Source of the DNA: a virus
Length of the DNA: 64,000 nucleotides
IMG/VR virus record: IMGVR_UViG_3300035670_000014
Coordinates: 96,001 to 160,000 of that record
Reading direction: 5' to 3' (one strand)
Part shown: one piece after another, positions 23,393 to 55,400 of the stretch
Numbering within the stretch: position 1 is the first letter of the stretch
Layout of the letters: the number at the start of each line of letters is the position of its first letter
Made by a program: the position numbers and the translations under genes
Notes under the pieces: generated by a model
What the model was told of the DNA's origin: nothing
The model's input: the letters and a program-made list of their open reading frames with translations, nothing else
Database searches by the model: none

Positions 23393-23396
23393 GAAA

Positions 23397-31267: not shown

Positions 31268-31296
31268 GAGAGCACCTTCTAGAAGAAGAAGTAAAC

Positions 31297-34765: not shown

Positions 34766-34804
34766 GAGAATCCTCCTGTTTAGTTCAGCGAAATGCTGAA
34801 CGTG

Positions 34805-35062: not shown

Positions 35063-35299
35063 AAGTCCTCCTGTATTTTGGTTTTACTTGGGGTATCCCA
35101 AGTGCAAGATGCAAGTAAAAGATCCCGAAGGGATCTTTGTGCCTTGGAGCTGTTTACTTTTGAGGATAAAGGTCTCTAATGTCGGAGTGCAAGTTTGAAA
35201 AGACGGGGCGTTACGAAAGCCCCTGAACAACGACACTGTTCAATGCGTGCGCCCGCGCTGGTTTTCAGGCCGGCGTACAAAAGTTTAGTCTTCTTCTAG

Positions 35300-35397
35300 A
35301 AAAAAGAAACCCCATAGTGACCAGCTATGGGGGAATTCACTAAGGATACACTAATGTATCAACTCGTGAACTCGGCAGGGAGGGTGTCTGCCTTCTC
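35300..35397 (-). ncRNA. putative ~100-nt ncRNA
   Basis: Lies between the GAA hairpin (35405-35421) and a terminator (35301-35332); stem-loops, no ORF. Confidence 0.45.
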
Positions 35398-35516
35398 ACC
35401 ACATAGTCCCCGAAGGGGACTTGTTCCCTTAGCCAGAGATTATCTGTCTAGTATAAGGGAAATAACTGAAAATGAAAAGCCCCACTAGGGGGCAGAGCGA
35501 GATAGATGATGTTCTT

Positions 35517-35756
35517 CTATTCTGTGATTGAAACAGAATCTTCTGACACCACCGGCTTGATACCCGAGCGACCTTCTACGATCGCCATAAAGCGACCGAG
35601 GAACTGCTCGCTAACACCAAGAGCAGAGATGTACTCTGCTTCAGTGTATTCGACGGTAGCCTCTATCTCCAACTTTAAGGACTTATCCAGAATCCCAGCG
35701 CCAGGGTTAACGAAGGAAGCCGGAACAAGGGCATTGATTCTGAAAGAAGACTTCAC
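35517..35756 (-). CDS. hypothetical protein
   Basis: GTG start after AAGGTG; terminator downstream. Confidence 0.55.
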   Translation of the reverse strand: MKSSFRINALVPASFVNPGAGILDKSLKLEIEATVEYTEAEYISALGVSEQFLGRFMAIVEGRSGIKPVVSEDSVSITE

Positions 35757-35889
35757 TGTTTCACCTTTTAATTGACTGGGGCGAAATTGCCCAGATGGTT
35801 TAATACCCTCGTTGCCATGAGGGCGGAGCCCGATGGTCTGCCTGAGCGAAGCGAACTACGCCGGCGCCAGTTGAAACTCAACTTCCTGC

Positions 35890-36108
35890 TCAATGATAGT
35901 ATGAGAAGTAACTCTCATGGAGCAGTGTGCTGAGGCAGACCAGGGACAATATGGTCGGTGCCCAGAAGAAACCAATCATCATAAAGTGGTCGAAGTTGTT
36001 GATGCTTGAGAAGCCTCGCTTGGCCCCATCAACCTGCTCGTTGGTAAAGCGAACTGTACACATGATTGACAACCACAAGCTAGCAGCAAATGCAAATACC
36101 TGGAACAT
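35890..36108 (-). CDS. small membrane protein
   Basis: Two hydrophobic segments; GAGGTG RBS. Confidence 0.6.
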   Translation of the reverse strand: MFQVFAFAASLWLSIMCTVRFTNEQVDGAKRGFSSINNFDHFMMIGFFWAPTILSLVCLSTLLHESYFSYYH

Positions 36109-36276
36109 AATTCACCTCTAATTTATCAGTAGGAAGAAATAGCCGAAATGGCCGGAGAAAATGCTCGGTCACACTATGGGCCCCGAAGGGGCCCTGGAGC
36201 CTATGTGTCTTGGATGCAGGATAAGAGCTGAAAATGAGAAGCCCCACGAAGGGGCAAGAAAATACCATGGACACAG

Positions 36277-36453
36277 CTAAGCGGGTGTTACGACCACTGG
36301 CTGCATCTGATAGTACCCATAGCCGACTACACCAAGAAGGTAAGCCTCGGCTGACTGCTGTGCCTCCTCCAAAGAGGAGGCTTCAATTGCCCACGTCAAG
36401 ACGAACGGATCGTCCCACGCGGGGCTAAGGTTAAAGTTGGCTCTGAAAAGCAT
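36277..36453 (-). CDS. small hypothetical protein
   Basis: AGGAG RBS; complete hairpin-leader-terminator cassette. Confidence 0.6.
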   Translation of the reverse strand: MLFRANFNLSPAWDDPFVLTWAIEASSLEEAQQSAEAYLLGVVGYGYYQMQPVVVTPA

Positions 36454-36619
36454 GGCAACTCCTGTGGTGCTTTGCACCCGTGTTTGATCCAGGGAATCCC
36501 AGATCTAGTCGACTTATGGGCCCCGAAGGGGCCCTGGAGCCTATATGTCTAAGACTTAGGGTAAAGCTGGAAATGAAAAGCCCCCAGAAGGGGGCAGGCG
36601 GTAGAGTTACCGCAACAGC

Positions 36620-37621
36620 TTAGCGGCCGGTGGCTAGCTTCGCCATTGCAAGCACACCCTCTCGGGTGGCCGCGCCGGCGATGAAGCGTCCAGGGTGACA
36701 GAAGATGGCATCTGCCACTCCAGTCAGAGCCTGAAGCTCCGAGTCACGCTTCGCTGCCCACTCCTCGGGCAGAGGAAGTCGCTTGTCAAACGACCCCTCC
36801 GAGGGAGGAACGCACTGAAGCATCCACTGACCTCTGGGGTCGGGATAGACAACGAAGTCTATCCCTGTGGAGGAGTCAGCGTTAGCAGCGATAACTGGTC
36901 CTTGCCAGGAGCCGCCACGCTCCAGCACCAGCACGGTTTCGCCCTCAGCGAGGGCTTCCTGTGCCAGTTCCAGGATGCGGGCACGATCCAGCTCCGCCTT
37001 CATAGCGGAGCGAATCTCGGCAGCCAGCAGCGTGCCGGCCAACTCGACTGCCCGCTCGAAAGCGGAGTCGAAGTCACCACCGTCCTCGGTGGGGTTCATC
37101 GCGCTGATAGCGCGACTCACCGACCAAACGTTGAGGCCCCGAGGAGCTGCTCCGACGTCTGCAGCGTCCACTGGCTGCACGACCTGTCGGTCGATCAGCT
37201 CCCAGACTGCCTCGGTGGCCGGGTCCGTGGTGTGCCCGCAAACCATGGCGATTGCGGTCCTGCCGAACGCGGCCCATGCCAGCCCGAAGGCTGCATAGGG
37301 AGCACCCTCGGGGGTGCCACCTCGACGGCCAGCAGCGTCCGTAGGCCTCCACTGGTGGTGGTCGAGGTAGTGGAGCGGGCCGGACTGTGCATGGTTGCGC
37401 TGCGTTTCATGACGTCCTCCGACGTCAATGACCGCAATCATGCAGCTGTCCAGGATCTCGGGCTGGCGAGTCCTGACAACAGCCAGACCCTCGCCGCAGT
37501 CAAATGCCAGCGCCGCCACGGCGCAGGCAAACGTCTCGTCTGCGTGGAACACACCATCGTGTGTTCCGATGTGAGCGGGAGCAATTTTGGCTGCAGTTGT
37601 GTCGATGGTATGAATCAGCAT
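36620..37621 (-). CDS. MYG1-family (DHH-like) exonuclease/hydrolase
   Basis: THDGVFHADE, RTR, DVGG, DHHQ, FCHPGRFI. Confidence 0.9.
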   Translation of the reverse strand: MLIHTIDTTAAKIAPAHIGTHDGVFHADETFACAVAALAFDCGEGLAVVRTRQPEILDSCMIAVIDVGGRHETQRNHAQSGPLHYLDHHQWRPTDAAGRRGGTPEGAPYAAFGLAWAAFGRTAIAMVCGHTTDPATEAVWELIDRQVVQPVDAADVGAAPRGLNVWSVSRAISAMNPTEDGGDFDSAFERAVELAGTLLAAEIRSAMKAELDRARILELAQEALAEGETVLVLERGGSWQGPVIAANADSSTGIDFVVYPDPRGQWMLQCVPPSEGSFDKRLPLPEEWAAKRDSELQALTGVADAIFCHPGRFIAGAATREGVLAMAKLATGR

Positions 37622-37767
37622 GACTTCTCCTGTGGCCCAGAGGGCCGGTTTTGACTCGGGGGAGTCCCGAGTCTGGTCGCCTTATGGCACCCGAAGGGTG
37701 CCTGGACTTATAAGTCTCAGATCTAGGCAAGACCTGAGAAAGAAAAAGCCCCTTTCGGGGCGGGGGC

Positions 37768-37986
37768 TCAGGAGCTGGGAAGCCCCGGGAGGTTAATTAA
37801 GTGGGGACGCTCCGTCAACAACCGGAGCGCGGGCTCATCGCCCATACCCGGGCGCAGCACTGCCGCGTAGAGGTCCCTCAGCTTTTCGTAGTGTTTCCAG
37901 GTGTCCATATCGCGGGTTGTCGACGCGATCCACTTTGCATCATGGTAGTTGTTATAGCAAATGCTATGGGCCTCGGCTGCTGTCAT
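37768..37986 (-). CDS. small hypothetical protein
   Basis: GGAGG RBS before MTAAEA; complete cassette. Confidence 0.6.
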   Translation of the reverse strand: MTAAEAHSICYNNYHDAKWIASTTRDMDTWKHYEKLRDLYAAVLRPGMGDEPALRLLTERPHLINLPGLPSS

Positions 37987-38104
37987 AACTCCTCCGGTGG
38001 CGCCATGCGCCGGTTTTTGACTCAGGGAAATCCTGAGTCTGGTCACACTATGGCACCCGAAGGGTGCCTGCAGCCAAAGTCCGTGATATAAGGCAAAAGT
38101 TGAG

Positions 38105-39022
38105 AAATAAAAAACCCCTTTCGGGGTAGTTTACGCTTATTGCAACTCACTTCCGGTTTCATCACCGGCTGGACCCTTCACCTTTACTACCAGCCCTATG
38201 ATAGGGTATAGTTGCGACCGAAAGGTCGCAGCTGGTCGCTTCCGCGCGAATAGCGCCGCAGTCAACTATCCACCGGTTTGCACCCCGATGGTAGTCCTGC
38301 TAATATGAGTCTAGGTGACTCACAATAAGGGACCCGAAGGGTCCCTGCAGCTAAAACAACGTAAGAAAAAAGCCCAATCTTGCGACTGAGCTTAATCCCC
38401 ACCTTCGGTGTATGTTTCGTGGTCTCATCACTCCAACCGCCACTTTCAGCGGGCCTTGGCAGGCGACGTGTTTCGGTTGTTCCTTGCCTAAGGGAAGCCT
38501 AGGTCATAATCTTGACCAATAGAAAAACCCCGAAGGGGTGCATGTCTTTATAAGAAAAATACCCAACCTGCAGATTGAGTAAATTTCCGAAGAGTGGCCA
38601 CTCTTCTACCCGAATACCAGAGCCTCTGGTGTTCCCCTCGGGTCAGGGGGGCTTTGACATGCCAAAATTATTCTCCCCAAGTTGTCAGCTTGGGGACCCA
38701 GTTGTCGCTGGGATGGGGACTTCGCTCCCTGGGGTGACAGCCTCCCCTTGGGTTCGTATGCACGGTATCAGCGTGCTTAGATACGAAGAACATACCATGG
38801 TACCCGAAGGGTACCTGCAGTAAAAGCGGCGTATACAAATCTTTTCTTCTAGAAAAAAATACCCGCCTAGCGGAGTTCCAATAGTCAAACTATAAGTCTA
38901 ACTACAAAGGAAAAGAGAACCCCTGCTCGCACCGCCACCTCCAATGGGAGATGACAGACACGACAGGGGGAGGTTCGCTGCGCTAGACTAGGCAGGCCTC
39001 ATGTGGCGGGGGGACCACACTC
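38105..39022 (-). ncRNA. Four tandem ORF-less structured transcription units (~38105-38321, 38365-38517, 38553-38791, 38852-39022)
   Basis: Each starts after a GAA hairpin and ends in a hairpin plus U-tract; dense stem-loops. Confidence 0.6.
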
Positions 39023-39125
39023 ACAAGAAGGCACCCGAAGGGTGCCTGCAAGTGTGTCCGAATGTCCGGCCGGCAGGGTGTCCGGCAGGGTGTGCGGAGC
39101 CCGCGAAGCGGGCAAGCTAGCGGAG

Positions 39126-42100
39126 TTATTCCTTGAAGAACTTCTCCACGTACTTCTTGGCCGCAAGCTTGACTTTTGGCAGATTTGCAACCTTACACAG
39201 AAGCTGGCCAAGGTGATTCTCACCTTTACCCTTACACTTACCCCAGAAGGTATCACCCCAGTGGTTATTTTCCACAGGAGTAACTTTGCCGCCCGAAGTT
39301 GCAGCGTAAAGGCGAAAAGCCAAATACATTCCTTCTGGAGTATCTGCTTGGTCAGCAAACTTAGACTCCAGGATGCAGTACATGACATCTAACCTTAAAG
39401 CCTCCCAGGTTGCCATTGCATCAGGTGAAGAAGGCTTAAAGTCCTTAGCCTTCTTCTTTGCCGTGTACCCGTTGTCAGTAGGAAGAATAGTGTTTTCTTC
39501 TTGATTGAGAATATTACACTTAATCCACTGATACAAGGTCTCACTTGAGGCAAAGACAACACCATCTGCCACTACGGAGCACGGATACATGTTAGACATA
39601 AACTCAAAGTCCTTAGACTTAAAGTTATCAGTCTCACTGATTACCAGTTGTCCATAGTGGCTCTTTCGAGCTGAAGGCTCGTGCTCGGTCGACTTATTTG
39701 CCAGCTTCAACAAGATGTCACCGTGACACTTCTTGGGTGCACACCAGCACACTAAGTCCTTGCCTTTCAATTCATGCAAAGATTTCATGAGTTCTGGTTG
39801 TTGTACTACCCAGTCAGCGTACTTCTCCACAGCTTCGTCTCGCGTCTGACACTTCCACTTGGCTGATGTTTCAGCCTGGTGGCTAAATGGATTACCCCAC
39901 TTAGTAGGGCGTCCAATGTAGACTGCGGTTTCGGGAGCCGTGTTGGCATGCTTGTTGTGCACCACTGGCAAGCCAGGAGGAGTCGGAGGCGTGTCATTAA
40001 CAACACCAACCAAAGACACATGACGAGCATTCTTCTTGCCCAAGGCAAGATACTTGTCATAGGTGTCCTTAACACCTCCAATTGGTCCGTTCTCCCCAAA
40101 GGTAAAGGCAATCAAGAAGTCCGAATCTTCCGCAATCAGAGTATTGCGATCAAACAGGCCCTTGATCTCTCCACTCTGGAAAGTTACCTGGTGCCGCTCA
40201 TCCCGAGGATCATTCCAGTAGGTATTAACCATTGCCTGGATGTCCTCAAGAGACCAGGACTGGCTTTCGCCGTCAGTCATGGCAAGGCTAAACTGCCGGT
40301 GATACTTATTCATGGCATCACCTGCGTCGTTTGCCTCTTTGACAGTAAAGGCATTATTCTCAAACTCAGCACCAAGGTGCAAAGTAAGAGCTTCAACCTC
40401 TGCGCCCATGAGGAGGGATATTGCAACATGGTCAGACCAAGCCGCACCTCCACTGACAAGACGAATCGCCTCGGCACCAGTTGCAGCCTTAATTGCTGCA
40501 ACAGCCTTCTTGGTGCGCTCAACCATGAACAAGAAATGTTCTTTGGTCAAGTTCTCACCGCGGCCAGCGGTGCCAATAACACCCAGAGTCACCGTCTTCT
40601 CAGGCAAACGGTAGTAGCCGTCGATGTCCTCGGTGCGATTATCGCCATCGCCGTCAAAAGTGACGACATAACGACTCTCATCGTTCCCAAGGAAGCTGAT
40701 ACCAGAGTAACCAGCTGCCTTCACTCGTGTGAAGAAGGCGTTGCTGTTGTCCCCTGGATTCAGCAGGTCGAACGGCTTACCAGTCTCCCGGTAGTGCTCA
40801 GACCGCAGCTGCTCGTAGGCCGCCCTTCCATCCTTGGACAGTCTAACCAAGAAGTTGGTAAGGTCAACCTTACGGGAGTCAATCTGACTTCCATAGGTCT
40901 TTGCCTCCTCCTTGTCCTCGGTCCAGTACTGGAATTCACGTCCATCGCTCCTACCATGAAGACCCTGATAGACAGTGACCTCAGCAGCAACTTCTGGTTC
41001 GACTTCTACTTCTGCTGGCCCTGGCTCAGGATCAGAGCCACTACAGAAGTCAAGAGACAGCTGATAGCGGTAGGAGTGACAGCCACTTCCATCTTCATCT
41101 CCGTAGAACCAGAACAAAAGAGGCTCTGAGAAATGGTGCAGGAAGTGCTCCATGAAAGCTTCATCCATGTCCCCTTGTTCCTCGAAGTACCCTACCTCAA
41201 TGTAGAGGCCAGTATAGCCTCTCTTCTTGAGGTACAGGAAGAATTCACCATCAGACTTCAGGTCCTCAATGAAGTCTTCACGAGTCTGCAGTGACTTAAC
41301 ATCAAGGCAGTACTCGATGTGGATCTTGAGGAGCTGACGAAGGCTGCTGGGCGACTCAATGACCAGCATAGCCGACCTATCAAAGACTCTATAGTCTCCG
41401 ACGCCTGCCATGGAAGCTTGACTAGCAAGCCAGGTCGAGAAGTCCTCTTCCTCTTCCTCATCCCCCTCGTAGTACTTAGACGCAAGGATAAGGTTTGGAT
41501 CAGGATCTGTAAATGGATGCCTATAAGTAGGCACTTCCACTTCAGGTTCCGCCTTCACCTCAGTCTTGATCTCGACTACCTCAGACTCGACAACCTCAGG
41601 CTTAGCCTCGACAACTTCAGCCTCGATCACCTCACTGTAAGTGAAGTCCTCGACTGCCACATCTTCGAGACCATCGAAGTCGTAGTTGTCGAAGTCCACA
41701 TCAGTGTGATAGCCGATGGGGCCTGAGGTGTAGTCCACCTGCTCAACCGAAGGAGCGAACTCCGACAGGTCCAGCTTGCCGAGAGGAGAAACCTCGCCCT
41801 CAAATGCAACCGTGACCTTAAAGGTCGGGTGCAGAACCTGCACCGCTGGGTTGCTTGCCTTGGTATTCCCGGTCACATCAGTTTCGATGCTGATGACACG
41901 GTACTTGTCAAGGCCCTTGTGGGAGATAAACTCCTCAAGCAGCTCGGGGGTGACGACCTTCGTGTCTTTGAAGAAATCCCTGAAGGCCGTGTTGATCAAG
42001 GTTGTAGCACCCCTCTCAACCCTCAGCTTGCCAAGGAAATTCTCACCCTTGGTCTTGAGGATTCCACCACGCAGAACGTCACTCAGAAGCTGACCAACAA

Positions 42101-45100
42101 CCTCAGAGTTGATCTGAGAAGCAACCTCAGAATCAAGCACGAAGGCATCGCCAAACTCTGACTTCCGCTTGACCATCGGGGTCTTGATGTCAAGTCCCAA
42201 CTCAGCCACGTCAGGCCCCTTGCCATTGATGAAGGCAAAGTAGGCCTTCCCGAAGTCCTTATACTCGTCGTTAAACGAGAAACCAAGGACAACGGTGCTC
42301 TGAGGAGCGGAAGCGCCCAGGACATTCAGGGCCTTGAGCGAGTAGACCCAAGGACCCTCAGGCAGGCCGTCAGCAGACATGACCGGCGTCCCGTCCTCAT
42401 TCAGGTAGTTGCCCACATACAGAGTGTGGATGGGCAGCTTGTCAACCTGAATTGAACCGAAGCTCCGGCGGCCGCTCTTGATGAACTGCTCGCAGGAAAG
42501 CGCCCGCTCAGGATTGGCCTGGTCAGTCTTGAACGCGTTCGCACGCTTGACCAGCTGGAGGAAGGTCCAGAGGGCAAAGCGCAGCTTGCCAGACTCATTC
42601 CAGGCATGCCACTCCTTGAGCCAGGCCTGCTCGACAGCTGCCCTTGCACGGATTCGGCTCTTCTTGTCAAGAGGAAGAGCTTCAACCTGGGCAATCTTGT
42701 CGAATCGACCCCTGTTCAAGCGAGAGCAGAAGTCTGCAAAACCTGCAATCTCTGCCTCGTGGGTGCCAAGGGCAGCCTCAAGCTGAAGCCAGGGTGACTC
42801 CTCAAGAGTCTGCTCGACCTGCTCGAAGGCGATCCGCAACACGGAATCCTTGTACTTCTCGAACAAGTCAAAGACCCATGAAGTAGCACGCTCAACCTTC
42901 ACGTTCTTGAACGCAAAGTGCAGTGCCTTGATGCCCTGACCGGTCGCAGCATCACCCTCCTGAAGGAGCTGACTCTGCCCAGCAAAAGGAGCCGCAAAGG
43001 CCGCAATGCCACGCTTCATCAGCCAGCCAGGGAAGTAGAACTTCATCTGGCTTGCAGGCAGCATGTGCATGCTGTACGAGACGGTAGTTTCACCCTCGTA
43101 CTTTTCGACCTTCTTGCTCGGGTCGCCGAACAGAGCAAGGCCCATGTACATGGAAACAGACCAGATCATCTGCATGACCTTTACTGCCTCCGGCACATTC
43201 TGACCCTGAGTGTCGGCGTCGATGACGTTCGACAGCATCTCTGACATGGTCAGCAAGATGAGGTCGAGGTAGGTCAAGGACTTCCACTCACCGTTCGGGT
43301 CAAGGCCATCAGACTCAATTACTGACCTGACGTTTGCCCTGAGGTTAAACTTGTCACCAAAGTGAACAAGCCCCTGCATGATGGCACCCATCAGCATCTG
43401 CACGTTAGCTGCAGTACCAGTGGTGCCCTTCATGTTCTCCAGTGCAAAGATTGCACTGTCGACCCTCTCCAGAGGAGAGCTGAACACCCGGAGGTTGCCG
43501 CTCGTGTCAAGTGCACCCTCGGTGAAGTACCTCTCGGCAAACTGCAGCTTCGCCATGTTCATGATGAACGCAGTCAAGCCGACTGGGATAGTCGAAGGGG
43601 GAAGCTTGGCATTCGTTTTACCTTCTGCCTGCTTCCTATTCCTCCGCTCCTCAGCCTTCAGGTGAGCGTTGTTCAGCTCCTTGAGGACGAAGTCGTTGGC
43701 TGCCCTGTCTCCAACAAGGTCACGAACCAAAGCCTCGTCGTCTCCGCCAAAGCCAAAGGAGTACCAGCCTTTGAAGTCAAAGCGGGTATCCAGTGCCATG
43801 TGCCGGAACTGACCGACCTGAGAGTTCAGGAAGTCAAGAGCCACCTTCCTCTTCTCCTCGCCGGGAGTCATGGCAATAATGGCCTGCTTCTTGCGCTCCT
43901 GGAAGCGGATGCAAGACTTGGCCAAGTCGCCGTGAATCTCCGCCATCCGGTCGTCAAGGTCTGCACCGTCCTGTGCCTTGAAGAAGATTTCAAAGGCCTC
44001 AGGAGTTGGCATGACCCAGCGGCACCCGACTGGCACCGAGTCCATTGGGACAAGGATACCCCATGCTCCCGACTTGAAAGTCGAAGGGTTCCGGTAATAG
44101 AACACCAACGGGGAGCCATGCAGACCCATGATCCGGTTGTAATCTGCAGTGTTGCAGAAAATAACCCGGTTGTAATCATAGGTCAAGCCAAGTGGCTTGA
44201 GGTGATTCTCGACCAGAGACTTAATCTGCTCCTCAGATACTGCATTCTTATATGCAGACCAAAGAGCCTTCGTCTCGTCCTTGACGTTGAGCTTCATCAC
44301 CTCAGCTACGGCCTCAAACATCAGGCCAGGGTGCACCTGCGGATACACCGACTCAGCGATCTTGGTATACACCATCTCGCCGTTGGCGTTTGGCATCTTC
44401 AATGCCAAGGGCAGTCGGGTCCTTGCAGGGTCCATTGCCTGATTGGTGAGCTGGTTCATGATTGGCGCTACCAGCTGAGGCAGAGGAATGCCGTTCCCAA
44501 TCACCTTAGCAGTCCCACCGAGGACCTCCTTGAGGCGGCTCGCAGCGAGGAGTGCGTCAGCAACGCCTTCAGGCTCTGACTCATCCCCATCCATGAGGTC
44601 GGTGAAGATCTCAGAGTCAAGCTCTGACATTTCGTTCTTCACTCTCAGGTTGGAGAGAATCTCCTCAAGGCGGGTCGTTGCATCCTCTTCAATCTTCTTG
44701 AAGATGTCAATGACCGCCGGATCCCTCAGGTCAAACCCGTTGATCAGGCTCTGAGTGTCAGTGCAGACACCCTTACGAGCCTTCGGGACACCCGAGTTCA
44801 GGATGATCGTAGCTCGATCATCTGACCAGGTGGGGCAGATTTCACCCTTTGACCCGTAGGCAATCATGTCCTTCCCAGTAGCCTTCATGAACTCTGGAGA
44901 CATGATGTGGAAGCCACCCTTCACCATGAAGTTGGTGAAGTAGGCTCGGCCAATGAGGATCTTCCCATCGAGCTTGCCTGCCTTGAGGTCAGCCAGATAG
45001 TCCTGAGGCAGCACGAGAGCCATGAGGCGGCGAGAGACAAACACCACGCCGTCATAGATCTCATCGGCAAGCATTGCTGCCTTAGCCTTCTCGAACAGGC

Positions 45101-46136
45101 TGTCACCGTTAACTGGCTTGACGACCAGGACAGAGTCCTTAAGAGCATTAAGCTTGAAGGTCTGCCCTTCCAGCTTGTAGCTCTTATTGAACTCAACGAC
45201 CTTGCCACGGAGCAAGTTCGGCGCAAAGTACTGAGAAATGTACTTCTGCGCCTTCGCTGCAGCCTGCACCTGCTTCGCCGGTGAGCCGTCCTCTTTGACC
45301 TTCACTCCATAGACGCAAGAAGCAAGCTTCATTGCTTCGTCGTCAGTTGCCTTAGACAAGGCATCATTGGTCAAGTTGAGGAACAAGCAGGTGGGGTTGA
45401 CATCGGGAGTCTTATCAATTCCCTTGTCGCTCTCCTCCCAGGTCTCCCCAGCGGCCTCAGCTGCCTTCCGCTTCAACTCCCTGAGCTGCTTCTTCTCAGC
45501 CTTCTTGGAGGCCTCGATTCGTCGCTCATAGAGTGAGTCCATCGAGTCTTTGCTGAGAGCATTGACCAGAGAGGTCCTGGCAGCAACCTCGACCTGCTCG
45601 GACCCATAGTTGGTCTGAATCAGGTTGAGTGTTGCCCATGCCTGAGCAAGCTCGCCCGCAGTCAGGTGGCGCAGGTCGCCGTGCTTCTTCAGACAGTCAA
45701 GCGCTCGCTTGACCGTGAAGTAGAAGTCAATGCTTGCGCCTGAGCTTGGAGCCCGGTGCAGGTGATGCAAAGACTTCTGCCAGACATTGACGTCGCCAGG
45801 CTTCACGTTAAACGGCTTAAAGCCGTAAAACTTCTCAAAAGCGGCCATGATTTCTGCCGTCTTCTGAGCATACGGTGCCATGGAGTCAACGTGGACCTTG
45901 TAGGCCACCTTGGCATCTTTCTCGTCAAATCCTGGCCAGTTGAAAAGCTCAGGAGACGTCAGGTTGAGTCCAACCTTATGCCCAAGCAGAACACGGATCA
46001 TTGCCACTGCCGCAGGCAATACGAGGGACTTGTAGTCTTCCTCGTTGCAGCGGATAGCCTCGATGTTCTCAGACTTCAGCGTCTTGAAGAGTTCGAGTGC
46101 CTGGTCATTGGCTACTTCTACTTTCACTTCGCTCAT
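39126..46136 (-). CDS. Two-barrel single-chain RNA polymerase (YonO/QDE-1-like) fused to ART-like, SLOG, DUF4326 and NADAR domains
   Basis: YDGVVFVSRRL, GR...VKG, YRNP, DGADLDD, TGTAAN, SNVIDADTQG; C-terminal GRPTKWGNPF/CWCAPKKCHGD and SN.Y..ENNHWGDTFWG..GENHLG; AGGAGG RBS before ATG 46136. Confidence 0.75.
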   Translation of the reverse strand: MSEVKVEVANDQALELFKTLKSENIEAIRCNEEDYKSLVLPAAVAMIRVLLGHKVGLNLTSPELFNWPGFDEKDAKVAYKVHVDSMAPYAQKTAEIMAAFEKFYGFKPFNVKPGDVNVWQKSLHHLHRAPSSGASIDFYFTVKRALDCLKKHGDLRHLTAGELAQAWATLNLIQTNYGSEQVEVAARTSLVNALSKDSMDSLYERRIEASKKAEKKQLRELKRKAAEAAGETWEESDKGIDKTPDVNPTCLFLNLTNDALSKATDDEAMKLASCVYGVKVKEDGSPAKQVQAAAKAQKYISQYFAPNLLRGKVVEFNKSYKLEGQTFKLNALKDSVLVVKPVNGDSLFEKAKAAMLADEIYDGVVFVSRRLMALVLPQDYLADLKAGKLDGKILIGRAYFTNFMVKGGFHIMSPEFMKATGKDMIAYGSKGEICPTWSDDRATIILNSGVPKARKGVCTDTQSLINGFDLRDPAVIDIFKKIEEDATTRLEEILSNLRVKNEMSELDSEIFTDLMDGDESEPEGVADALLAASRLKEVLGGTAKVIGNGIPLPQLVAPIMNQLTNQAMDPARTRLPLALKMPNANGEMVYTKIAESVYPQVHPGLMFEAVAEVMKLNVKDETKALWSAYKNAVSEEQIKSLVENHLKPLGLTYDYNRVIFCNTADYNRIMGLHGSPLVFYYRNPSTFKSGAWGILVPMDSVPVGCRWVMPTPEAFEIFFKAQDGADLDDRMAEIHGDLAKSCIRFQERKKQAIIAMTPGEEKRKVALDFLNSQVGQFRHMALDTRFDFKGWYSFGFGGDDEALVRDLVGDRAANDFVLKELNNAHLKAEERRNRKQAEGKTNAKLPPSTIPVGLTAFIMNMAKLQFAERYFTEGALDTSGNLRVFSSPLERVDSAIFALENMKGTTGTAANVQMLMGAIMQGLVHFGDKFNLRANVRSVIESDGLDPNGEWKSLTYLDLILLTMSEMLSNVIDADTQGQNVPEAVKVMQMIWSVSMYMGLALFGDPSKKVEKYEGETTVSYSMHMLPASQMKFYFPGWLMKRGIAAFAAPFAGQSQLLQEGDAATGQGIKALHFAFKNVKVERATSWVFDLFEKYKDSVLRIAFEQVEQTLEESPWLQLEAALGTHEAEIAGFADFCSRLNRGRFDKIAQVEALPLDKKSRIRARAAVEQAWLKEWHAWNESGKLRFALWTFLQLVKRANAFKTDQANPERALSCEQFIKSGRRSFGSIQVDKLPIHTLYVGNYLNEDGTPVMSADGLPEGPWVYSLKALNVLGASAPQSTVVLGFSFNDEYKDFGKAYFAFINGKGPDVAELGLDIKTPMVKRKSEFGDAFVLDSEVASQINSEVVGQLLSDVLRGGILKTKGENFLGKLRVERGATTLINTAFRDFFKDTKVVTPELLEEFISHKGLDKYRVISIETDVTGNTKASNPAVQVLHPTFKVTVAFEGEVSPLGKLDLSEFAPSVEQVDYTSGPIGYHTDVDFDNYDFDGLEDVAVEDFTYSEVIEAEVVEAKPEVVESEVVEIKTEVKAEPEVEVPTYRHPFTDPDPNLILASKYYEGDEEEEEDFSTWLASQASMAGVGDYRVFDRSAMLVIESPSSLRQLLKIHIEYCLDVKSLQTREDFIEDLKSDGEFFLYLKKRGYTGLYIEVGYFEEQGDMDEAFMEHFLHHFSEPLLFWFYGDEDGSGCHSYRYQLSLDFCSGSDPEPGPAEVEVEPEVAAEVTVYQGLHGRSDGREFQYWTEDKEEAKTYGSQIDSRKVDLTNFLVRLSKDGRAAYEQLRSEHYRETGKPFDLLNPGDNSNAFFTRVKAAGYSGISFLGNDESRYVVTFDGDGDNRTEDIDGYYRLPEKTVTLGVIGTAGRGENLTKEHFLFMVERTKKAVAAIKAATGAEAIRLVSGGAAWSDHVAISLLMGAEVEALTLHLGAEFENNAFTVKEANDAGDAMNKYHRQFSLAMTDGESQSWSLEDIQAMVNTYWNDPRDERHQVTFQSGEIKGLFDRNTLIAEDSDFLIAFTFGENGPIGGVKDTYDKYLALGKKNARHVSLVGVVNDTPPTPPGLPVVHNKHANTAPETAVYIGRPTKWGNPFSHQAETSAKWKCQTRDEAVEKYADWVVQQPELMKSLHELKGKDLVCWCAPKKCHGDILLKLANKSTEHEPSARKSHYGQLVISETDNFKSKDFEFMSNMYPCSVVADGVVFASSETLYQWIKCNILNQEENTILPTDNGYTAKKKAKDFKPSSPDAMATWEALRLDVMYCILESKFADQADTPEGMYLAFRLYAATSGGKVTPVENNHWGDTFWGKCKGKGENHLGQLLCKVANLPKVKLAAKKYVEKFFKE

Positions 46137-46219
46137 GAGACCCTCCTGGTCTACGTGGGGTTGGTTCCCCTGGTCATTTGCATCCGGCAGACTATCTGCC
46201 TTTTGCACAGTAATAATTG

Positions 46220-46954
46220 TCATGACTTGGCCTTAGGCTCGGCTAAGCAGGGTGACTGCAAACCCTCCGAAGGAGGGTCGGGCCATGCTTGCTCTGTATC
46301 CAGAGCAAGGTAAGCAGCCTCGGCAGCTGCCTGCTCCTCAAGCTGGCAGTCGTGCATCCACTGGTCGAACATTGCCTGAGACCAAGCAAGCTCGTCATCA
46401 TCAGTGAAGTGCCTAGACCTGTCCGCTGCAGCAGGTACTTGCTCGACCCACTTCTCCAAAGCTCGTTCCAGTTCCCATCGCTGGAATTCCAGGTTTGGCC
46501 AGTCATTGCCAAGGAACAGGGAACAGCCCATGGCCGAGGGCAAGCTGGCCATAGAGAAGACCTCAGCCTCCTCCTCAACATGCCACTGATCGTAGCTGTT
46601 AATGGCTTGAGCCCAGCGGATTCGGACCCCGCAGCTCAGAACCTGCCCTTTTTCCTGAGCCTGAGCCCACTCGATCTGCTCTCGCAGCTCCGAGTAGTAC
46701 TCATCCCAGTCGTGCATGGTAGCGTAAGATACGCCACCCACTGCAACCTCAGTGTTGAGGCTGTAGAAGTGCGAATCCTGACGCAACATCTCTGCCGCGA
46801 CCTCGGCTGCTTCCTCAGTAGTTTCCCACTGAGCAAGGAGATCAGGGCACTCGTCCGCCTTACTGGCCTTGAACTTACCCACAATCATAGAGATCATAAG
46901 CTTAAAGTATTTCATTTTATTACCCTCGTGTTGTTTGGTTTGCTGGTTGAGCAA
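46220..46954 (-). CDS. acidic hypothetical protein
   Basis: ORF; likely start MKYFK at 46915 after GAGG. Confidence 0.6.
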   Translation of the reverse strand: MLNQQTKQHEGNKMKYFKLMISMIVGKFKASKADECPDLLAQWETTEEAAEVAAEMLRQDSHFYSLNTEVAVGGVSYATMHDWDEYYSELREQIEWAQAQEKGQVLSCGVRIRWAQAINSYDQWHVEEEAEVFSMASLPSAMGCSLFLGNDWPNLEFQRWELERALEKWVEQVPAAADRSRHFTDDDELAWSQAMFDQWMHDCQLEEQAAAEAAYLALDTEQAWPDPPSEGLQSPCLAEPKAKS

Positions 46955-48420: not shown

Positions 48421-48707
48421 GATCACTTATTACCTCCAAGGGTAAATGAAGTTTAGGAGTAGCAGCAGGATTGCTACTATCCAGGGCTAGGATCACGGCC
48501 CAAGACCAAAGTGTCATGTCTTTGACACTATGGGTCTCATATTAAATGAAAAAAGAATGGAATACATCTTCTAGAAGAAGAATGAACTCCAATTCCCCGC
48601 GAAGATAAATGCCAATGGCAAATGTCTCCTGTGAGATTATAAGTCTCATATTAAATAAAAAAGGAATGGAAATTAATCCATTCCTTCCCCCTGACCTCAC
48701 CTAAGCG

Positions 48708-48854
48708 TTATTCAACGCAAAGGCGGGTCAGTTCATCAGGCGGGCAGTGGTGGTTGTACTCCTGCGCGTTCCACACATGCAGCGCGATAGCTGCAGCGAG
48801 AACCACCAGGAAAAATACCACCGTTACCAACCGATCGACAAACACCTTGTCCAT
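48708..48854 (-). CDS. small membrane peptide
   Basis: GGAGG RBS, one TM segment. Confidence 0.55.
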   Translation of the reverse strand: MDKVFVDRLVTVVFFLVVLAAAIALHVWNAQEYNHHCPPDELTRLCVE

Positions 48855-48978
48855 AACTCCTCCGATGGTTAACCTATACACCATAAGGTAAGGGATTAAC
48901 AGAGAATGAGACGACATGTCTCATTCCCCATGAAAAAAGAATGCAACCAGGCCGAAGCCTGGCTGCATTCTTCAAACT

Positions 48979-49416
48979 TTATGCCCAGTTTCTACTCTTG
49001 GCCTTGAGGGGCCTGTGGTACCTGGGCTCCGGTGGTGGGAGCTTTGCCGGCTCCCACTCCTGGGCCCAGGCCAGTCGCTCTTCCGCCTCCCGCTCCAAGC
49101 GGGCCCGGAGGCGGCGGTCGGCCTCCGCCTCTTCCCGGGCGGCCTTGGCCGCCTGGGCCTCCCGCACCAGGCGGGCGTCTTTCGACGCCCACTCATTTTC
49201 CCAGGCCGAGCACCTGGGTACGTAGTCGGGCATTGGGGCCTGCGCCCAGAGTGGGCGCTGGTCCTTGGGTGCGGGGGCCGGGGCAGGTGCGGCGGCGGTA
49301 GTGCTGGTGGTTGCGGTGGGGGTGGTGGCGGTGATGGCAGCCATGGCCCGAGCTTCTGCTCGGGCAACGATGACTATGACTACGACGACAATAACAACGA
49401 TGATGTCAAGCAACAT
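48979..49416 (-). CDS. membrane-anchored Ala/Pro-rich protein
   Basis: N-terminal Val/Ile TM segment; GGGAG RBS supplied by the repeat. Confidence 0.65.
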   Translation of the reverse strand: MLLDIIVVIVVVVIVIVARAEARAMAAITATTPTATTSTTAAAPAPAPAPKDQRPLWAQAPMPDYVPRCSAWENEWASKDARLVREAQAAKAAREEAEADRRLRARLEREAEERLAWAQEWEPAKLPPPEPRYHRPLKAKSRNWA

Positions 49417-49542
49417 GAGCGAAACTCCCGACTAGTACCTACTAGCCTTAATGGGATGGATAGGAAATGAGACAGAATGTCTCATTCCCCATGAAAAAAG
49501 AATGCAACCAGGCCGAAGCCTGGCTGCATTCTTCAATCTTCC

Positions 49543-49728
49543 TTACTTAGCCCGAGTCCTCCAGGCATGAAGGAACTTAACTGGATGCATTACTGCATCC
49601 AAAAAGTCAAGGAAAGTGACCGGGTCTGCGCCCAGGTGGGCCCATGCCCACTCCGCGACGACGTAGATCAGGAAGGCCACCGATGCCAGAACGAGGATAG
49701 AAACAGCCACCAAGAACAATGTGAACAT
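49543..49728 (-). CDS. small membrane protein
   Basis: One TM segment; RBS supplied by the repeat. Confidence 0.65.
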   Translation of the reverse strand: MFTLFLVAVSILVLASVAFLIYVVAEWAWAHLGADPVTFLDFLDAVMHPVKFLHAWRTRAK

Positions 49729-49853
49729 GGCGAACTCCCGGCTAGCGACACGCTAGCCTTATTGGGATCAATAGGAAATGAGACAGAATGTCTCATTCCC
49801 CATGAAAAAAGAATGCAACCAGGCCGAAGCCTGGCTGCATTCTTTAATCTTAC

Positions 49854-50156
49854 TTACCAGCTATCGACAAAAGCGTCGACAAGCTGACCCCAGGTCACCC
49901 AGTCCTGGCACGCCAACCCAAGCTCGTCGTGCCAGCCCAGGTCGGGGTCCATGCCCCCGAGCTCGCTGAGGATCACGACTGTGTCCCACATTGCGCCAGA
50001 TGGAGTTCCCTTGAAGAGGAACTCGGCCGTCAGGCGGTCGATCCCATGGGGGCCGACGTAACCCACTGTAAAATCTCCGCTGTAGCTGAGGATGTTGGGG
50101 CAGTAGCCCAGCAGGATGCGGGTGGCGGTGATGGTGGTGGTAGTGGTGTTCTGCAT
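49854..50156 (-). CDS. hypothetical protein
   Basis: Start MQNTTT; RBS supplied by the repeat. Confidence 0.65.
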   Translation of the reverse strand: MQNTTTTTITATRILLGYCPNILSYSGDFTVGYVGPHGIDRLTAEFLFKGTPSGAMWDTVVILSELGGMDPDLGWHDELGLACQDWVTWGQLVDAFVDSW

Positions 50157-50284
50157 GGCGAAACTCCCGGCTAGCGACACGCTAGCCATGATGGGATGGA
50201 TAGGAAATGAGACAGAATGTCTCATTCCCCATGAAAAAAGAATGCAACCAGGCCGAAGCCTGGTTGCACCTTTAATCTTAGACC

Positions 50285-51348: not shown

Positions 51349-52420
51349 AGGAACTGAGAAAGCTAAAGCCAGAGGAGAGACTTCGTCTCTCAGTCCAGAA
51401 GAAAGGAAAGCAGAAAGGCACAGGAAAGCCATGGCAAAGTACATGGCAAAGAGAAGGCAAAAGGAGAAGGAAGCCAGACAGATTCTGGCCAGGGAAGAGA
51501 AGGCAAAGCAAGCGGCCGAAAAGGAGGAAATTGCAAAAAATCTGGAGGAACAAATTGCAAGTGTTCCCCCTGGGAAGCATTTTGCAACAGAGTTGCAAAA
51601 GAAGAACTCCTTAAATGAATTAGATTTTGGCCGCGTTTTAAATGATGCTTTAACTGTAATTGAACCTTCTCAGGTAAATGTAGAAGAGTTCTTCAGTTTT
51701 CTGGAGTTGAACAAATATAATGAGACCCTTTATAAGGGCATAACCATGACCAGGGCCATGGCAGAGGGAATTAAGAATCACCTCATGGCAATGAAGCATG
51801 GTACTTACAGTGCTGTTCCTTTACTCTGTAAAGGTGGTCTTAAGTGTCCCATGGTCAGTCAGTGTTGGTTTGCTCACAGGGATGATGATGGTCAAATAGA
51901 TCATGAGAAATCTACATACCCTTTATTTAAACCTTGTCCTGTAGAGTCTGGAATTATTGAGTTAAAGATTAGACAATATATTAGTGAACACCTGGGGAAT
52001 AACATGAACATTACTCCCAGTGTTATGAATCTTATTTCCCGGCTTGCTGAGTTGGATATATATGAAATAAGAGCTGACATATTACTTAGTACCGGTTCTG
52101 CTCTTAGCTCGGATGGGCAGAATCTCCTTATTACCGTGGTTGATGCAATAAATCAAAAAAGCGGGGAGGCATTCTTCACCGTAAAAGAGCATCCTGCCTT
52201 GGTAATCAAAGAGAAGCTACAGAATCAAAAAGATCGACTTATGAAAAGTCTGCTTAGTACACCTGAAGCTAAGCTTGCTATGGCAGCTAAGCTTAAAGGT
52301 ACAAGTGAAAAATCTGATCAGACAAACATATTAACTCAGATTGCAACTACCCTGAAAAAGAATGCATCAAAAGTAGATTCTTATTGGGACGTTGATTTAA
52401 TTGATCCAGAGGATCTATGA
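51338..52420 (+). CDS. hypothetical protein, possible terminase small subunit
   Basis: Cys cluster C-x5-C-x5-C...CPVE, KEHPAL..KE; lies upstream of terL. Confidence 0.4.
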   Translation: MTNRGTEKAKARGETSSLSPEERKAERHRKAMAKYMAKRRQKEKEARQILAREEKAKQAAEKEEIAKNLEEQIASVPPGKHFATELQKKNSLNELDFGRVLNDALTVIEPSQVNVEEFFSFLELNKYNETLYKGITMTRAMAEGIKNHLMAMKHGTYSAVPLLCKGGLKCPMVSQCWFAHRDDDGQIDHEKSTYPLFKPCPVESGIIELKIRQYISEHLGNNMNITPSVMNLISRLAELDIYEIRADILLSTGSALSSDGQNLLITVVDAINQKSGEAFFTVKEHPALVIKEKLQNQKDRLMKSLLSTPEAKLAMAAKLKGTSEKSDQTNILTQIATTLKKNASKVDSYWDVDLIDPEDL

Positions 52421-55400
52421 TAGATAAGGACTTACTCGATAAGCTTGGAAGCGTCACCAGCGTTGCAAAAATGCGCATTCTGATGCAGGGAATACAAGAT
52501 AAGGATACAGACATAGGTACGATAAGAACCATGTCTAAAGAGGCATTTGAGGCCATTAAATTCGATCTTGCAACCGGGCACTTAAAGGCGATGAGACACC
52601 TTACTCTCGGAGTAAGTCCTGAGATTAGAAATGCTTTACTTCTAGATATTGAAGGTGGAGGTATTGACAGATTTGCTCCTGTTCTTCAGATTGCTGTTGG
52701 TACAGTTGGTCTTGATTCTACTGAGACTAAATATAGCTTTGTAGATAAAGCTGGACAAATAACTGAAGATTCTAGTAAGGCTATACAGGAACTTGAACTG
52801 TTGCCTGTTTCTCACATTAAAGATGTAGAAGAGGTTATTGATCAAAATAGGTCGGGTTATAAAACAGCGACCTATAAAGGTCGCAGGGAGATGTATTTAT
52901 CTCAGCAAGCCTATACTCAGAATGTAATGAATTCTGGATGGGTGTTTAATGCTTCAGAAAAGTCTGATGCGTTAAAGACAAGAGCCCTTTATGAGTACCT
53001 AGAAACCTTACCTGAAAATGAAAAACTTGCTAAGTTAAAGGAAGGCTTTGAAAAAGGTAGCTTTGAATTTACAGATAGAGCTGGAAAGGTTCAAAGGTTA
53101 TATACTCCGAGAGAAGCTGCAATTCGAGTTCTAGAAAGTCTCCTTGACATGAGGAATAAGAATGGCGCAGTAATTGGCGCTAATATTCAGTTCGACTCCG
53201 AAAGACTCATGACCCTTATAGGGTCCTACATCAAAGAAGAAGATGGATCTATTAATGCTCATAGATTCTCCAGTGAAACTACACTGGTAGATGAAGCGGG
53301 CAGGCGAATTGATGTTATTGAACAGGCAATTAATAACGATCCCCGTATAACTAAATTCTTTGGAGGGCAAGCCATAAAGGGCTTTGAAGACATCAGAGCA
53401 ATGATGTCTTCAACCTACAAAAACCCCGGCAAGACTAACATACTTGACCCGACCCAGACAAGATATAGAAGTAAAGTTGCTAGACTAAACCAGCTAGGTG
53501 CTGGTTATATGTCTTCTCTGTATCTCAAGTTATTTGAATCTGAACTAAGAGATAAAGGCTTAAGCTCAATAGACCAGCAAGATGTAACAGCAAGGGCAAT
53601 CTATAGTGCTGCATCTATGTTGACCAGAGACAAGGCACTTGAACAAGCGCAACTTAAAGATCAAGCAATAAGAATAGCAGATCAAAATAGAGCTTCAAAG
53701 ATATATGGCCTGAATATTCCAGACTCTGAGTCGATGCTTCCCCGAGGTGGAATACTGGATACCACGGATCCAGTAGAAGGTCAAGTTAGAAGGCTTGGTG
53801 TAGGAAGTAGAAATGTAAAAGCATTATTAGATGATACCTTTTCACTAACAAGTGTTCAGTATAACCTCAGTGTTCTTTTTCCTGAAGCAGCAAAACAAGC
53901 TCACACTGCTGGACAGGACCTAGTAGATCAGTTAAAAATTCTTAATAAAGTAAATCCAGTAGCTAGATTCCTTGCAACAAATGCAGGGCTATATCAAGCT
54001 GGTGGTTTTGTAAATTCAACACTAGCATTTTTAAGAGAAACTGCTGCTGTTCTAAATACAGAAACTAGAGAAGAAATAGAAAGTGTATGGAAGCTTTTTA
54101 CAACAAAAGCTGTTGATGTAAGTTACTATGATTTTATTTCTAAAAAAAATATAACAGGACCACTAGCTCAGGTCAAAAAGTATAGAAGCTTGCAAAGAGC
54201 AATGTTCCAACTTCAAGAGTCCATGGAGATATGGACTGCTAGTTTAGATGAGATAGAAAGAGGTGAAGTAAAGTCTACTTTATTAGCTAGAGATGCAACT
54301 GGAAAAGTAATTATTAATGAAGTAGATGGCAAAAGAGTACCAAAGATGGAGGAAGGATTTACTTTAACACAAGTAAAGACAACATCAAAGCAAATGGTAA
54401 GAGCAGATGGTCTTACCATTACTGAGTTAAGAAATGTAGGTAGAGATTACACAGTAGAAAATAGAGCTAGGCTTTACTATGATTTTAAATTTTCCGAACT
54501 TGGACAGGATCCTAGTGGTCTAGACTACCAGACAAAAAGAGCAGAAGCTTTAAAATTCGCAACATCAGAAATTAGAAAAGAATATGCTGCCTTGCCAAAT
54601 GTAAAACAAAGTGGATTTACTATTGAAGATTTGGAAAGAATGTCTTCTGAAATCCAGGCAAGGTATGCTGATACAGGTGGCCCTGAGGAACTAAGAAGCC
54701 AGTTAGTTCAAGGAGGCAAGTCAACTAATGTAGAAACAAATCAAAGCTTAATTAAGCTTGGTGCAACTGAATATAAAGGAGAAATAAATATTGAAAGAGC
54801 ACTAACAGATCAAGCTATAAAAGCAGAAGGTGCAAGCAGGACGCTTGGAGGTCAAGCTTCAATGCTTCTAGACAGTTATACTTCTAATTATATTAGAAGA
54901 CATGCAGGAAAGATTGCTGGTGGAGCCATAGGCTTAGGTGCAGTTGGTGTTATGAGTGCTGATGCAGCATATGAGTTTATTACTAAAGATAATTATGATC
55001 CAAGTAGAGTATCAACTTTAGATATTATTGGAAGGAGAGATGAAATAGATCCATTCCTAAGTCAATTTACAGAAGCAAATGATAACTCTTCAGATTACGA
55101 ACCAAGTAGATTCCAGCAGCCATTTTATATGGCCTCAAAAGCTCTTAGAGCAATAAGTAATCTTGGTAATAGTTTTATGCCTCAAATGGAAGCTGATATA
55201 GGTCAATATTTAACTGGACCAAGTCAAGTAAATAACATGTCTTCTTCTTATTCAGGTATGGGAGTTGATCTTAATAAGTTTGATTTGTCCGTTGAAGACG
55301 CAGATACAGTTAAGCTTATAAGTAAGTCAAATGCAAATGCAGAATTTCAAGTTCGTTTCTCTGGTGTCGATACTCCAGAAACAAGGCACACTGGTGGTGG

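Follow-up and report, generated by a model that had tools for sequence, protein, structure and literature searches.

The 64,000-nt window analyzed here (bases 96001-160000 of the 170,948-bp IMG/VR virus record IMGVR_UViG_3300035670_000014, which represents an uncultured phage and has 127-bp direct terminal repeats at its ends) encodes on its minus strand a 2365-aa protein, P0001. The core of P0001 very probably adopts the fold of a two-barrel RNA polymerase (RNAP), and its metal-binding loop is a conserved DxDD in place of the DxDxD that is given as common to the two-barrel RNAP families (PMC10770324, PMC7824862, PMC7886860). As a whole, P0001 is best explained as a multidomain protein that contains an active single-chain DNA-dependent RNAP, is expressed early, does not belong to the virion and carries a C-terminus related to defense, a composite reading to which we assign a probability of roughly 0.6. 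The original prediction, made from the letters of the window, had placed a YonO/QDE-1-like polymerase at positions 43170-46136. This span lies inside the P0001 open reading frame (ORF), which is uninterrupted in translation, but it takes in just residues ~30-1018, whereas the core occupies residues ~321-1335 and about 1000 more residues hold other domains.

Conserved motifs and a contracted catalytic loop

Searches of ~15 billion proteins assembled a P0001 core family of 13 sequences. Three long relatives with ~51% identity came from a word-indexed search across 5.8 billion protein clusters. When 1.84 billion representatives were searched exhaustively with HMMER, only nine clusters were returned, among them one 2020-aa protein (33% identity) and seven stand-alone proteins of 1090-1260 aa (21-24% identity); one further relative was added by profile search. 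No relative of the core was found by tblastn in 50,697 phage and 72,556 plasmid records, or by pattern and tblastn scans of IMG/VR and 185,579 prokaryote genomes. With no relatives in prokaryote genomes, plasmids or deposited phages, the family therefore appears confined to uncultured lytic-type phages.

The motifs listed in the original prediction are all present in the translation of P0001, in the order and at the places noted there (Table 1). The alignment of the 13 sequences, in which identity falls to ~21%, contains 38 invariant columns, and all of them fall in the motifs. The invariant residues include D391 and G392, K435, G436 and G437, R711 and P713, D755, D757 and D758, G936, A939, N940, Q942 and M943, as well as S994, L997, S998, D1002 and Q1006, the latter two groups belonging to the conserved blocks G-x-A-A-N-x-Q-M and S-x-M-L-S-[ND]-[VI]-[IV]-D. 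The first barrel region has three invariant lysines, K435, K459 and K484, and an almost invariant R426, from which the two basic residues that the β-like barrel contributes in this superfamily may come. The catalytic loop reads [DE]-[GT]-[AG]-D-x-D-D in 13/13 members, with a variable middle residue (L, F, E, G, Q or Y) and with R, G, A, H or S immediately after the loop. Since DxDD is present in every member, the contraction is a trait of the family and not a lesion of the P0001 gene alone, which supports the earlier suggestion of a divergent subfamily.

The reported absence of the Gly between the last two Asp residues is evident when E. coli β′ (ADFDGDQMA) is aligned with P0001 (ADLD-DRMA). 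In the E. coli protein (MG1655 record), the strand N-R-A-P-T-L-H lies ahead of the loop N-A-D-F-D-G-D-Q-M-A, with a spacing of 35 from R-x-P to the first Asp; in YonO (SPbeta record) the corresponding elements are R-S-P and D-N-D-G-D with a spacing of 43, and in P0001 they are Y-R-N-P-S-T-F and G-A-D-L-D-D-R-M-A with a spacing of 44. In the simplest alignment, a single residue is missing between the second Asp of the triad and the third. In such a site, the catalytic Mg2+ would be held by the contracted [DE]-G-A-D-x-D-D loop, with D755 and D757 corresponding to the first two Asp residues of DxDxD and the third ligand provided by the adjacent D758 or possibly by the conserved acidic residue 752; the geometry of metal binding may be altered. 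A DxDD variant of two-barrel RNAPs was not described in the literature searched.

Loss of the Gly might instead have destroyed the metal site, leaving a polymerase module that is catalytically dead or a purely regulatory pseudo-polymerase that binds nucleic acid or another RNAP; the absence of canonical DxDxD in every register would fit this, as would the presence in the genome of another candidate RNAP with a canonical loop (P0014, described below). Dead enzymes, however, usually lose exactly the active-site residues. Here the three Asp residues, R-x-P, KGG and further Lys, Arg, Asn and Gln residues are invariant at ~21% identity while their neighbors vary, and the stand-alone members consist of little beyond the core. 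The archaeal DNA polymerase PolD also speaks against loss of activity: its DP2 subunit is a two-barrel enzyme with just two invariant loop Asp residues (D956 and D958), both of which are critical for activity (PMC4996933), and catalysis can thus go together with a variant loop. DP2 differs from P0001 in being a DNA polymerase of another overall architecture, and it is not among the structural matches listed for P0001. The conserved DxDD, together with an active-site set that is invariant at such divergence, argues for a working enzyme; an inactive one, which the original prediction had offered as an option, is highly improbable.

Predicted fold of the core

An AlphaFold2 model of residues 330-1330 was obtained with the 13-sequence alignment (mean predicted local distance difference test score (pLDDT) 73.6, predicted template modeling score 0.73, and pLDDT of 81-95 in both barrel regions). 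In the model, the catalytic core consists of two double-psi β-barrel (DPBB) domains on one chain, a β-like barrel followed by a β′-like barrel. Residues ~385-500 are assigned to the putative β-like barrel because of the domain order and the full-length alignment with QDE-1. Model residues ~275-458, which contain the R-N-P and D-L-D-D motifs, align with the N-domain of p97/CDC48, with designed DPBB proteins and with the β′-type barrels of Pol I/III, archaeal, AR9 and phiKZ RNAPs. The original prediction depended on a DPBB in the predicted structure and on aspartates conserved in homologs; the barrel is predicted at residues 620-775 (model residues ~290-445, pLDDT 81-95), and the aspartates are invariant in all 13 sequences. 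The β-like barrel (YDG...KGG) would face the β′-like barrel (RNP...DLDD), as is the case in QDE-1, YonO, crAss gp66 and P23-45 gp64/gp96.

When the model was compared with the PDB by Foldseek, the best matches were, in order, phi14:2 gp66 (E 8e-7), QDE-1 (4e-5), and then P23-45-type gp64, gp96 and RDR2. VIA-align, which is independent of Foldseek, was run against all 48,161 PDB cluster representatives, and five chains had a Z of at least 8, every one of them a single-chain two-barrel RNAP: QDE-1 (14.2, 510 residues aligned), maize RDR2 (12.9), P74-26 gp62 (12.6) and P23-45 gp96 in two crystal forms (10.9 and 10.8). Below these, at Z 5.4-7.5, came the largest subunits of Pol I, III, IV and V and of archaeal, mycobacterial, vaccinia, African swine fever virus, AR9 and phiKZ RNAPs, and also plain DPBBs (the CDC48/p97 N-domain and designed DPBB proteins). 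Matches in BFVD comprised pieces of crAss-like RNAPs, phage entries named 'RdRP', phi14:2 gp66 and P23-45 gp64.

Comparison with known two-barrel polymerases

Residues 1-1700 of P0001 have no match in Pfam, PHROGs, NCBIfam or PDB sequences. The core family profile found no polymerase among PDB sequences, phmmer against the PDB was also empty, and the Pfam RdRP family (PF05183; QDE-1/RDR family) did not match P0001 even at E <= 1. The profile aligned to the single YonO sequence by hhalign gave a probability of 0.1, which is not significant, and it is only in motif order and spacing that the two agree. The description of the protein as YonO/QDE-1-like thus holds at the level of fold and motifs and carries no claim of membership of YonO or Pfam RdRP at the level of sequence.

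QDE-1 and RDR2 (PDB 2J7N, 7Y7P-T, 7W84) are the best structural matches (QDE-1 with Z of 14-15 and 510-549 aligned residues, RDR2 with 12.9) and share with P0001 a single chain, the same order of barrels and an R-x-P strand ahead of the acidic loop. However, they have no detectable sequence similarity to P0001, belong to families described with DxDxD (PMC10770324), whereas the P0001 family has DxDD, and are eukaryotic silencing enzymes without fused DUF4326 or NADAR domains. Among phage proteins, the non-virion RNAPs P23-45 gp64 and P74-26 gp62 and the tape-measure-fused virion RNAP gp96 are likewise single-chain two-barrel enzymes (PDB 8F72, 8F5M, 8H2N; PMC10770324), with Z of 12.6 for gp62/gp64 (350-368 aligned residues) and 10.9 for gp96 against the P0001 model. 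In contrast to P0001, gp64 and gp96 carry DxDxD, neither shows sequence similarity to P0001, and gp64 is a protein of ~600 aa without accessory domains. The crAss-like Cellulophaga phage phi14:2 gp66 (PDB 6VR4) resembles P0001 in that a single-chain two-barrel RNAP is embedded in a phage protein of giant size (>2000 aa), but it is a virion protein from a structural/transcription block and has a DxDxD-type loop, whereas the P0001 gene lies in an early-type block. The phage itself also differs from crAss-like phages, as it has a baseplate-wedge-type tail module and its PHROG matches are not crAss-like. SPbeta YonO (PMC5467207) is a single-chain phage RNAP homologous to multisubunit RNAPs with V-K-G in the first barrel, as in P0001; unlike P0001, it has a canonical DxDGD loop, 839 aa and no fused domains.

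As the best structural matches, QDE-1 and RDR2, are RNA-dependent/DNA-dependent RNA polymerases and an SSB (single-stranded DNA-binding protein) gene is a constant neighbor, P0001 could also be an active two-barrel polymerase other than the mRNA polymerase of the phage, either an RNA-dependent RNA polymerase or an enzyme that uses single-stranded DNA to produce RNA, as QDE-1 together with RPA does, in order to prime, to recombine or to disturb RNA-based defense of the host. This is quite improbable, given that the characterized phage members (YonO, gp66, gp64 and gp96) are all DNA-dependent transcriptases (PMC5467207, PMC10770324), that the Z of gp62/gp64 is within ~2 of that of QDE-1 over a much shorter target, that a DnaG-type primase-helicase and DnaE are encoded by the phage itself, and that the gene lies among about 20 promoter-like elements preceding genes. 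For a role as replicative primase or replicase in particular, the presence of the DnaG-DnaB fusion and of the split DnaE led us to reject it as the main function of P0001. Both are encoded outside the window: the DnaG primase-DnaB helicase fusion at L004:14996-17533, and DnaE (Pol III alpha) in two ORFs at L005:1429-3951 and 4242-5492, one of which contains PHP and the start of the NTPase domain and the other the rest of that domain with the fingers, HhH and OB domains. P0001 is most likely an early-expressed, non-virion DNA-dependent RNAP.

C-terminal domains

Pfam, PHROGs and NCBIfam recognize the C-terminus of P0001 only, through DUF4326, NADAR and, under the cut-off, an ART-PolyVal-like segment (Table 1). 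The last of these sits in a block that is 73-77% identical to P0002/P0003. A further conserved domain at residues ~1878-2075 has motifs reminiscent of SLOG; its identity as SLOG is not established, as hhalign with SPbeta YoqJ (similar to B. subtilis YpsA according to its record) was not significant and Pfam gave no match. Residues 1720-2094 had no usable match in the ESM Atlas.

Phage proteins in which DUF4326 is fused to SLOG, NADAR or Macro have been described (PMC7824862). P0001 combines an RNAP core, DUF4326, NADAR and a weak ART-PolyVal-like match, and it is in this respect a large multidomain protein of the kind termed polyvalent in phages and conjugative elements (Iyer et al. 2017). The DUF4326 and NADAR domains, possibly with the ART-like and SLOG-like ones, probably counter host defense that is based on NAD+/ADP-ribose.

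Hairpins with C:G-closed GAA triloops

The plus (template) strand of the window carries 21 perfect C-GAA-G hairpins with a stem of at least 6 bp; the opposite strand has 1, and the number expected from shuffled sequence is 0.045. The 21 are located at 29635-39113 (one of them at 38052-38068) and 46262-46278, and 10 of the 21 sit 38-69 nt upstream of a Shine-Dalgarno sequence and ATG, the P0001 gene being one of those with its own hairpin. The hairpins are often followed by a second conserved stem-loop (GACCAGAC...). The hairpin upstream of the polymerase gene is kept in L010 (12944-12958, at the homologous spot) and in L014 (9919-9935, 65 nt upstream of the P0005 gene), i.e. in relatives of 51% and 33% protein identity. 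It lies in differing reading frames in these genomes and is therefore conserved as nucleic acid.

Promoters of the N4 virion RNAP are DNA hairpins on the template strand with a 5-7 bp stem and a 3-nt G-N-A loop closed by C:G (PMC4496689). The elements described here likewise lie on the template strand upstream of genes and have a C:G-closed G-N-A triloop, and by this analogy they look like promoters. N4 gp50 is similar to P0001 in function only, as a giant multidomain phage protein with an RNAP module (PMC4496689, PMC5512222); the N4 virion RNAP is a T7-like right-hand polymerase of unrelated fold.

Terminators were considered as another identity of the hairpins, in the form of cUUCGg tetraloops on the coding strand. 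This was rejected on account of the 3-nt loop (GAA in the template, UUC in RNA) and the lack of a U tract in most copies, and it is further opposed by the fixed position 38-69 nt ahead of start codons and by separate U-tract terminators that lie nearby, 16-45 nt upstream of several of the hairpins. The few copies in which the stem is short and the tail T-rich may still function as terminators. In the most distant relatives the picture differs: the coding strand of L016 bears C-AAA-G hairpins followed by U tails, and hairpins are scarce in L013. Strict co-occurrence of C-GAA-G hairpins and the polymerase family thus finds no support outside the relatives of at least 33% identity.

Two further regions with hairpins were observed. 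The ~1 kb downstream of the polymerase gene (window 38105-39125, minus strand) has no convincing ORF and contains 5-6 hairpin units and several U-tract terminators; stretches free of ORFs follow the polymerase gene in relatives as well (~1.4 kb in L010, ~0.75 kb in L016 and ~0.64 kb in L014). At window 48520-50268, a unit of ~40-107 nt is repeated 4-6 times with small ORFs as spacers, each unit comprising a CCAGGC-UUCG-GCCUGG hairpin with a U tract (terminator-like, minus strand) and a conserved inverted repeat TGAGACA...TGTCTCA.

Genomic context and a second candidate polymerase

The P0001 gene is situated close to the start of a minus-strand block composed largely of small genes, including those for SSB (window 33359-33958) and an exonuclease, and this block diverges from the packaging genes, which are ~5 kb away. 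The same arrangement is found in four other phage contigs with family members (L010, L013, L014 and L016), including those with stand-alone polymerases. In L010, L014 and L016, a late block on one strand (marked by a giant protein with a staphylococcal-nuclease (SNase) domain in L010 and L014 and by terminase in L016) diverges from a block on the opposite strand in which the polymerase lies between two groups of small ORFs and SSB comes after the second group; L013 shows the polymerase/SSB block only. One contig with a stand-alone polymerase encodes DUF4326 separately, within the same block. The phage encodes a portal, a major head protein, a baseplate wedge protein, terminase and a class II ribonucleotide reductase.

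Outside the window, a 2019-aa ORF, P0014 (L002:5450-11509; genome 13449-19508), contains S-T-R-F-P...T-S-D-R-D-G-D-Q, i.e. a canonical loop, and belongs to a group of three giant ORFs (1613, 2019 and 2798 aa) that shortly precede the baseplate wedge gene. P0014 has no family match and no match among PDB sequences, and hhalign of the P0001 family profile against it was not significant; by its motifs it is a candidate virion RNAP. P23-45 has a pair of RNAPs, gp96 and gp64, and a tail-adjacent and an early-region enzyme are also apparent here, with the role of P0014 deduced from motifs. By this parallel, P0014, encoded among tail genes, would be the injected enzyme, and the P0001 gene would probably be expressed early to give the non-virion RNAP of the phage.

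P0001 could alternatively be packaged in the virion and injected as a polyvalent protein, like N4 gp50 or crAss gp66, so as to transcribe the first genes from hairpins and deliver domains directed at ADP-ribose/NAD. Its large size and fused effector-type domains are characteristic of polyvalent proteins, and an RNAP module is known from such proteins in N4-like phages (PMC5512222); its gene is just ~5 kb from the divergent packaging genes; and the hairpins show the C:G-closed G-N-A triloop of the template strand that is recognized by the N4 virion RNAP (PMC4496689). Against this stands the position of the gene, which in 5/5 phage contexts is outside the structural module and heads a small early-type block with SSB and exonuclease. 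The hairpin 38 nt upstream is what would be expected for a product of the program and not for its initiator, the distant relatives are bare polymerases of ~1100 aa without effector domains (DUF4326 being a separate gene in one case), and it is P0014, beside the tail genes, that occupies the position of the tape-measure-fused virion RNAP of P23-45 (PMC10770324). We consider packaging of P0001 unlikely.

A more specific version of early expression can be proposed, in which the DxDD enzyme reads the C-GAA-G hairpins as promoters and transcribes its own gene and a GC-rich early regulon as a second stage after the RNAP of the tail module, while NADAR/DUF4326 disarm ADP-ribose-based defense at the site of transcription. 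This proposal is tentative, and we regard it as possible rather than probable; recognition of extruded hairpins as promoters is so far known only for the T7-like N4 virion RNAP, which is unrelated.

Several observations weigh against P0001 as an active, early, non-virion RNAP. The DxDxD triad, said to be the one motif common to all 23 two-barrel RNAP families (PMC10770324), is found in 0/13 family members in any register. The fold is that of an AlphaFold model based on 13 sequences, with low global TM-scores (0.2-0.3), and no sequence or profile method (Pfam RdRP, hhalign against YonO, PDB profile search) ties the family to a known RNAP. The model of residues 1330-2365, made with a 6-sequence alignment, has a pLDDT of 43.8, and no fold is claimed for residues 1336-2090. 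The resemblance of the effector-type C-terminal domains to injected 'polyvalent' proteins favors virion packaging over early synthesis, and the two-polymerase scheme draws on the motifs and gene position of P0014.

Features of P0001 and other elements of the window

The coordinates of the features are collected in Table 1. An alternative start of P0001 is possible at M30 (nt 46136); relatives have Met at the position of M30 and none has it at that of M1, and M30 may be the true start codon. In the relative P0002 (3002 aa), the counterpart of the upstream 244-aa gene and the polymerase are called as one ORF, whereas they are separate genes here; either gene fusion/fission or read-through in GC-rich DNA would account for the difference.

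Table 1. Features of P0001 and its surroundings in the window (aa, residues of P0001)
Feature	Residues	Window position	Strand	Remarks
Whole ORF P0001	1-2365	39126..46223	-	Polymerase core and C-terminal accessory domains; homologs of 45-55% identity span most of the length
N-terminal region	1-320	45264..46223	-	Conserved in close (~50% identical) relatives only; no family match
Two-barrel RNAP core (predicted)	~321-1335	42219..45263	-	Common to P0001, P0005 and stand-alone 1090-1260-aa homologs; predicted fold matches
First (β-like) barrel region (predicted)	~385-500	44724..45071	-	D391-G392, K435-G436-G437, K459, K484 and T488-D489-x-Q491 invariant; pLDDT 84-91
YDGVVFVS	390-397	45033-45056	-	First barrel region
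VKGG	434-437			First barrel region
Second (β′-like, catalytic) DPBB (predicted)	~620-775	43899..44366	-	pLDDT 81-95
YRNP	710-713	44085..44096	-	R711 and P713 invariant; counterpart of β′ N-R-A-P and YonO R-S-P
Catalytic loop DGADLDD	752-758	43950..43970	-	D755, D757 and D758 invariant; 752 is D or E in all members
TGTAAN	935-940	43404..43421	-	Opens a 16-residue helix, candidate bridge-helix equivalent; G936, A939, N940, Q942 and M943 invariant
SNVIDADTQG	998-1007	43203..43232	-	Helix-loop-helix; S994, L997, S998, D1002 and Q1006 invariant
Weak ART-PolyVal-like segment	1757-1858	40650..40955	-	Pfam PF18760 E 0.012-0.068, under cut-off
Conserved domain	~1878-2075	39999..40592	-	SLOG-like motifs IGTAGR, SGGAAWSDH, FDRN...SD...FTFG...GG.KDT; resemblance at the motif level only
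DUF4326	2093-2173	39705..39947	-	Pfam E 3.8e-24, above cut-off; phrog_464 E 5e-35
NADAR	2204-2345	39189..39614	-	Pfam E 4e-7, 30.8 bits (< 35.1 cut-off); phrog_1017 1e-24; NCBIfam NADAR anti-phage protein 2e-10
Upstream 244-aa gene		46220..46954	-	Stop overlaps P0001 start; 55% identity, E 2e-61, to P0002 aa 454-687
7-bp C-GAA-G hairpin		46262..46278	+ (template strand)	38 nt upstream of P0001 ATG; promoter-like

The P0001 gene is part of a GC-rich island (window ~20000-51000) with a GC content of 0.45-0.60, compared with 0.36 elsewhere in the genome. As the same split is seen in the related contigs L010, L014 and L016, it is a feature of the lineage and not a misassembly. The peak of 0.60 stems from small ORFs at 24143-27680 (minus strand) for low-complexity proteins rich in Gly, Tyr, Asp and Cys, with G-Y-G and G-D-G repeats, a common leader of the M-T-Q-N-N-T-Q type and acidic tails. 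Five paralogous ORFs of ~80-100 aa, which start with L-K-L-R-x-G-W and end with S-P-W-E-E-V, are located at 25207-25754 and 28031-28745 (minus strand), and six tRNA genes (Arg-TCT, Lys-TTT, two Leu-TAA, Met-CAT and Arg-CCT) at 13831-30902 (minus strand). On the plus strand, divergent from the polymerase block, 52417-56724 encodes a 1435-aa protein with an SNase-like domain, which has counterparts of 1445 aa in L010 and 1150 aa in L014 at the same place.

Significance

The new elements described here are a family with a contracted metal loop, its fusion to DUF4326 and NADAR, and a genomic setting that is specific to the lineage. DxDxD is the feature said to unite two-barrel RNAPs from bacterial β′ to Pol I-V, RNA-dependent RNA polymerases and phage enzymes, and it has also been used to find the phage members; with a loop that is invariably shorter, real polymerases would be missed by motif-based searches, and current annotation libraries show none of these polymerase features of the P0001 lineage. 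The shorter loop would also mean that the two-metal site of an ancient fold can be built in another way. The fusion of a two-barrel RNAP to domains that process NAD+/ADP-ribose represents a new architecture. In summary, the family is the mark of large uncultured phages of one lineage, in which transcription is probably independent of the host and carried out by two polymerases, with regulatory elements of the hairpin type.

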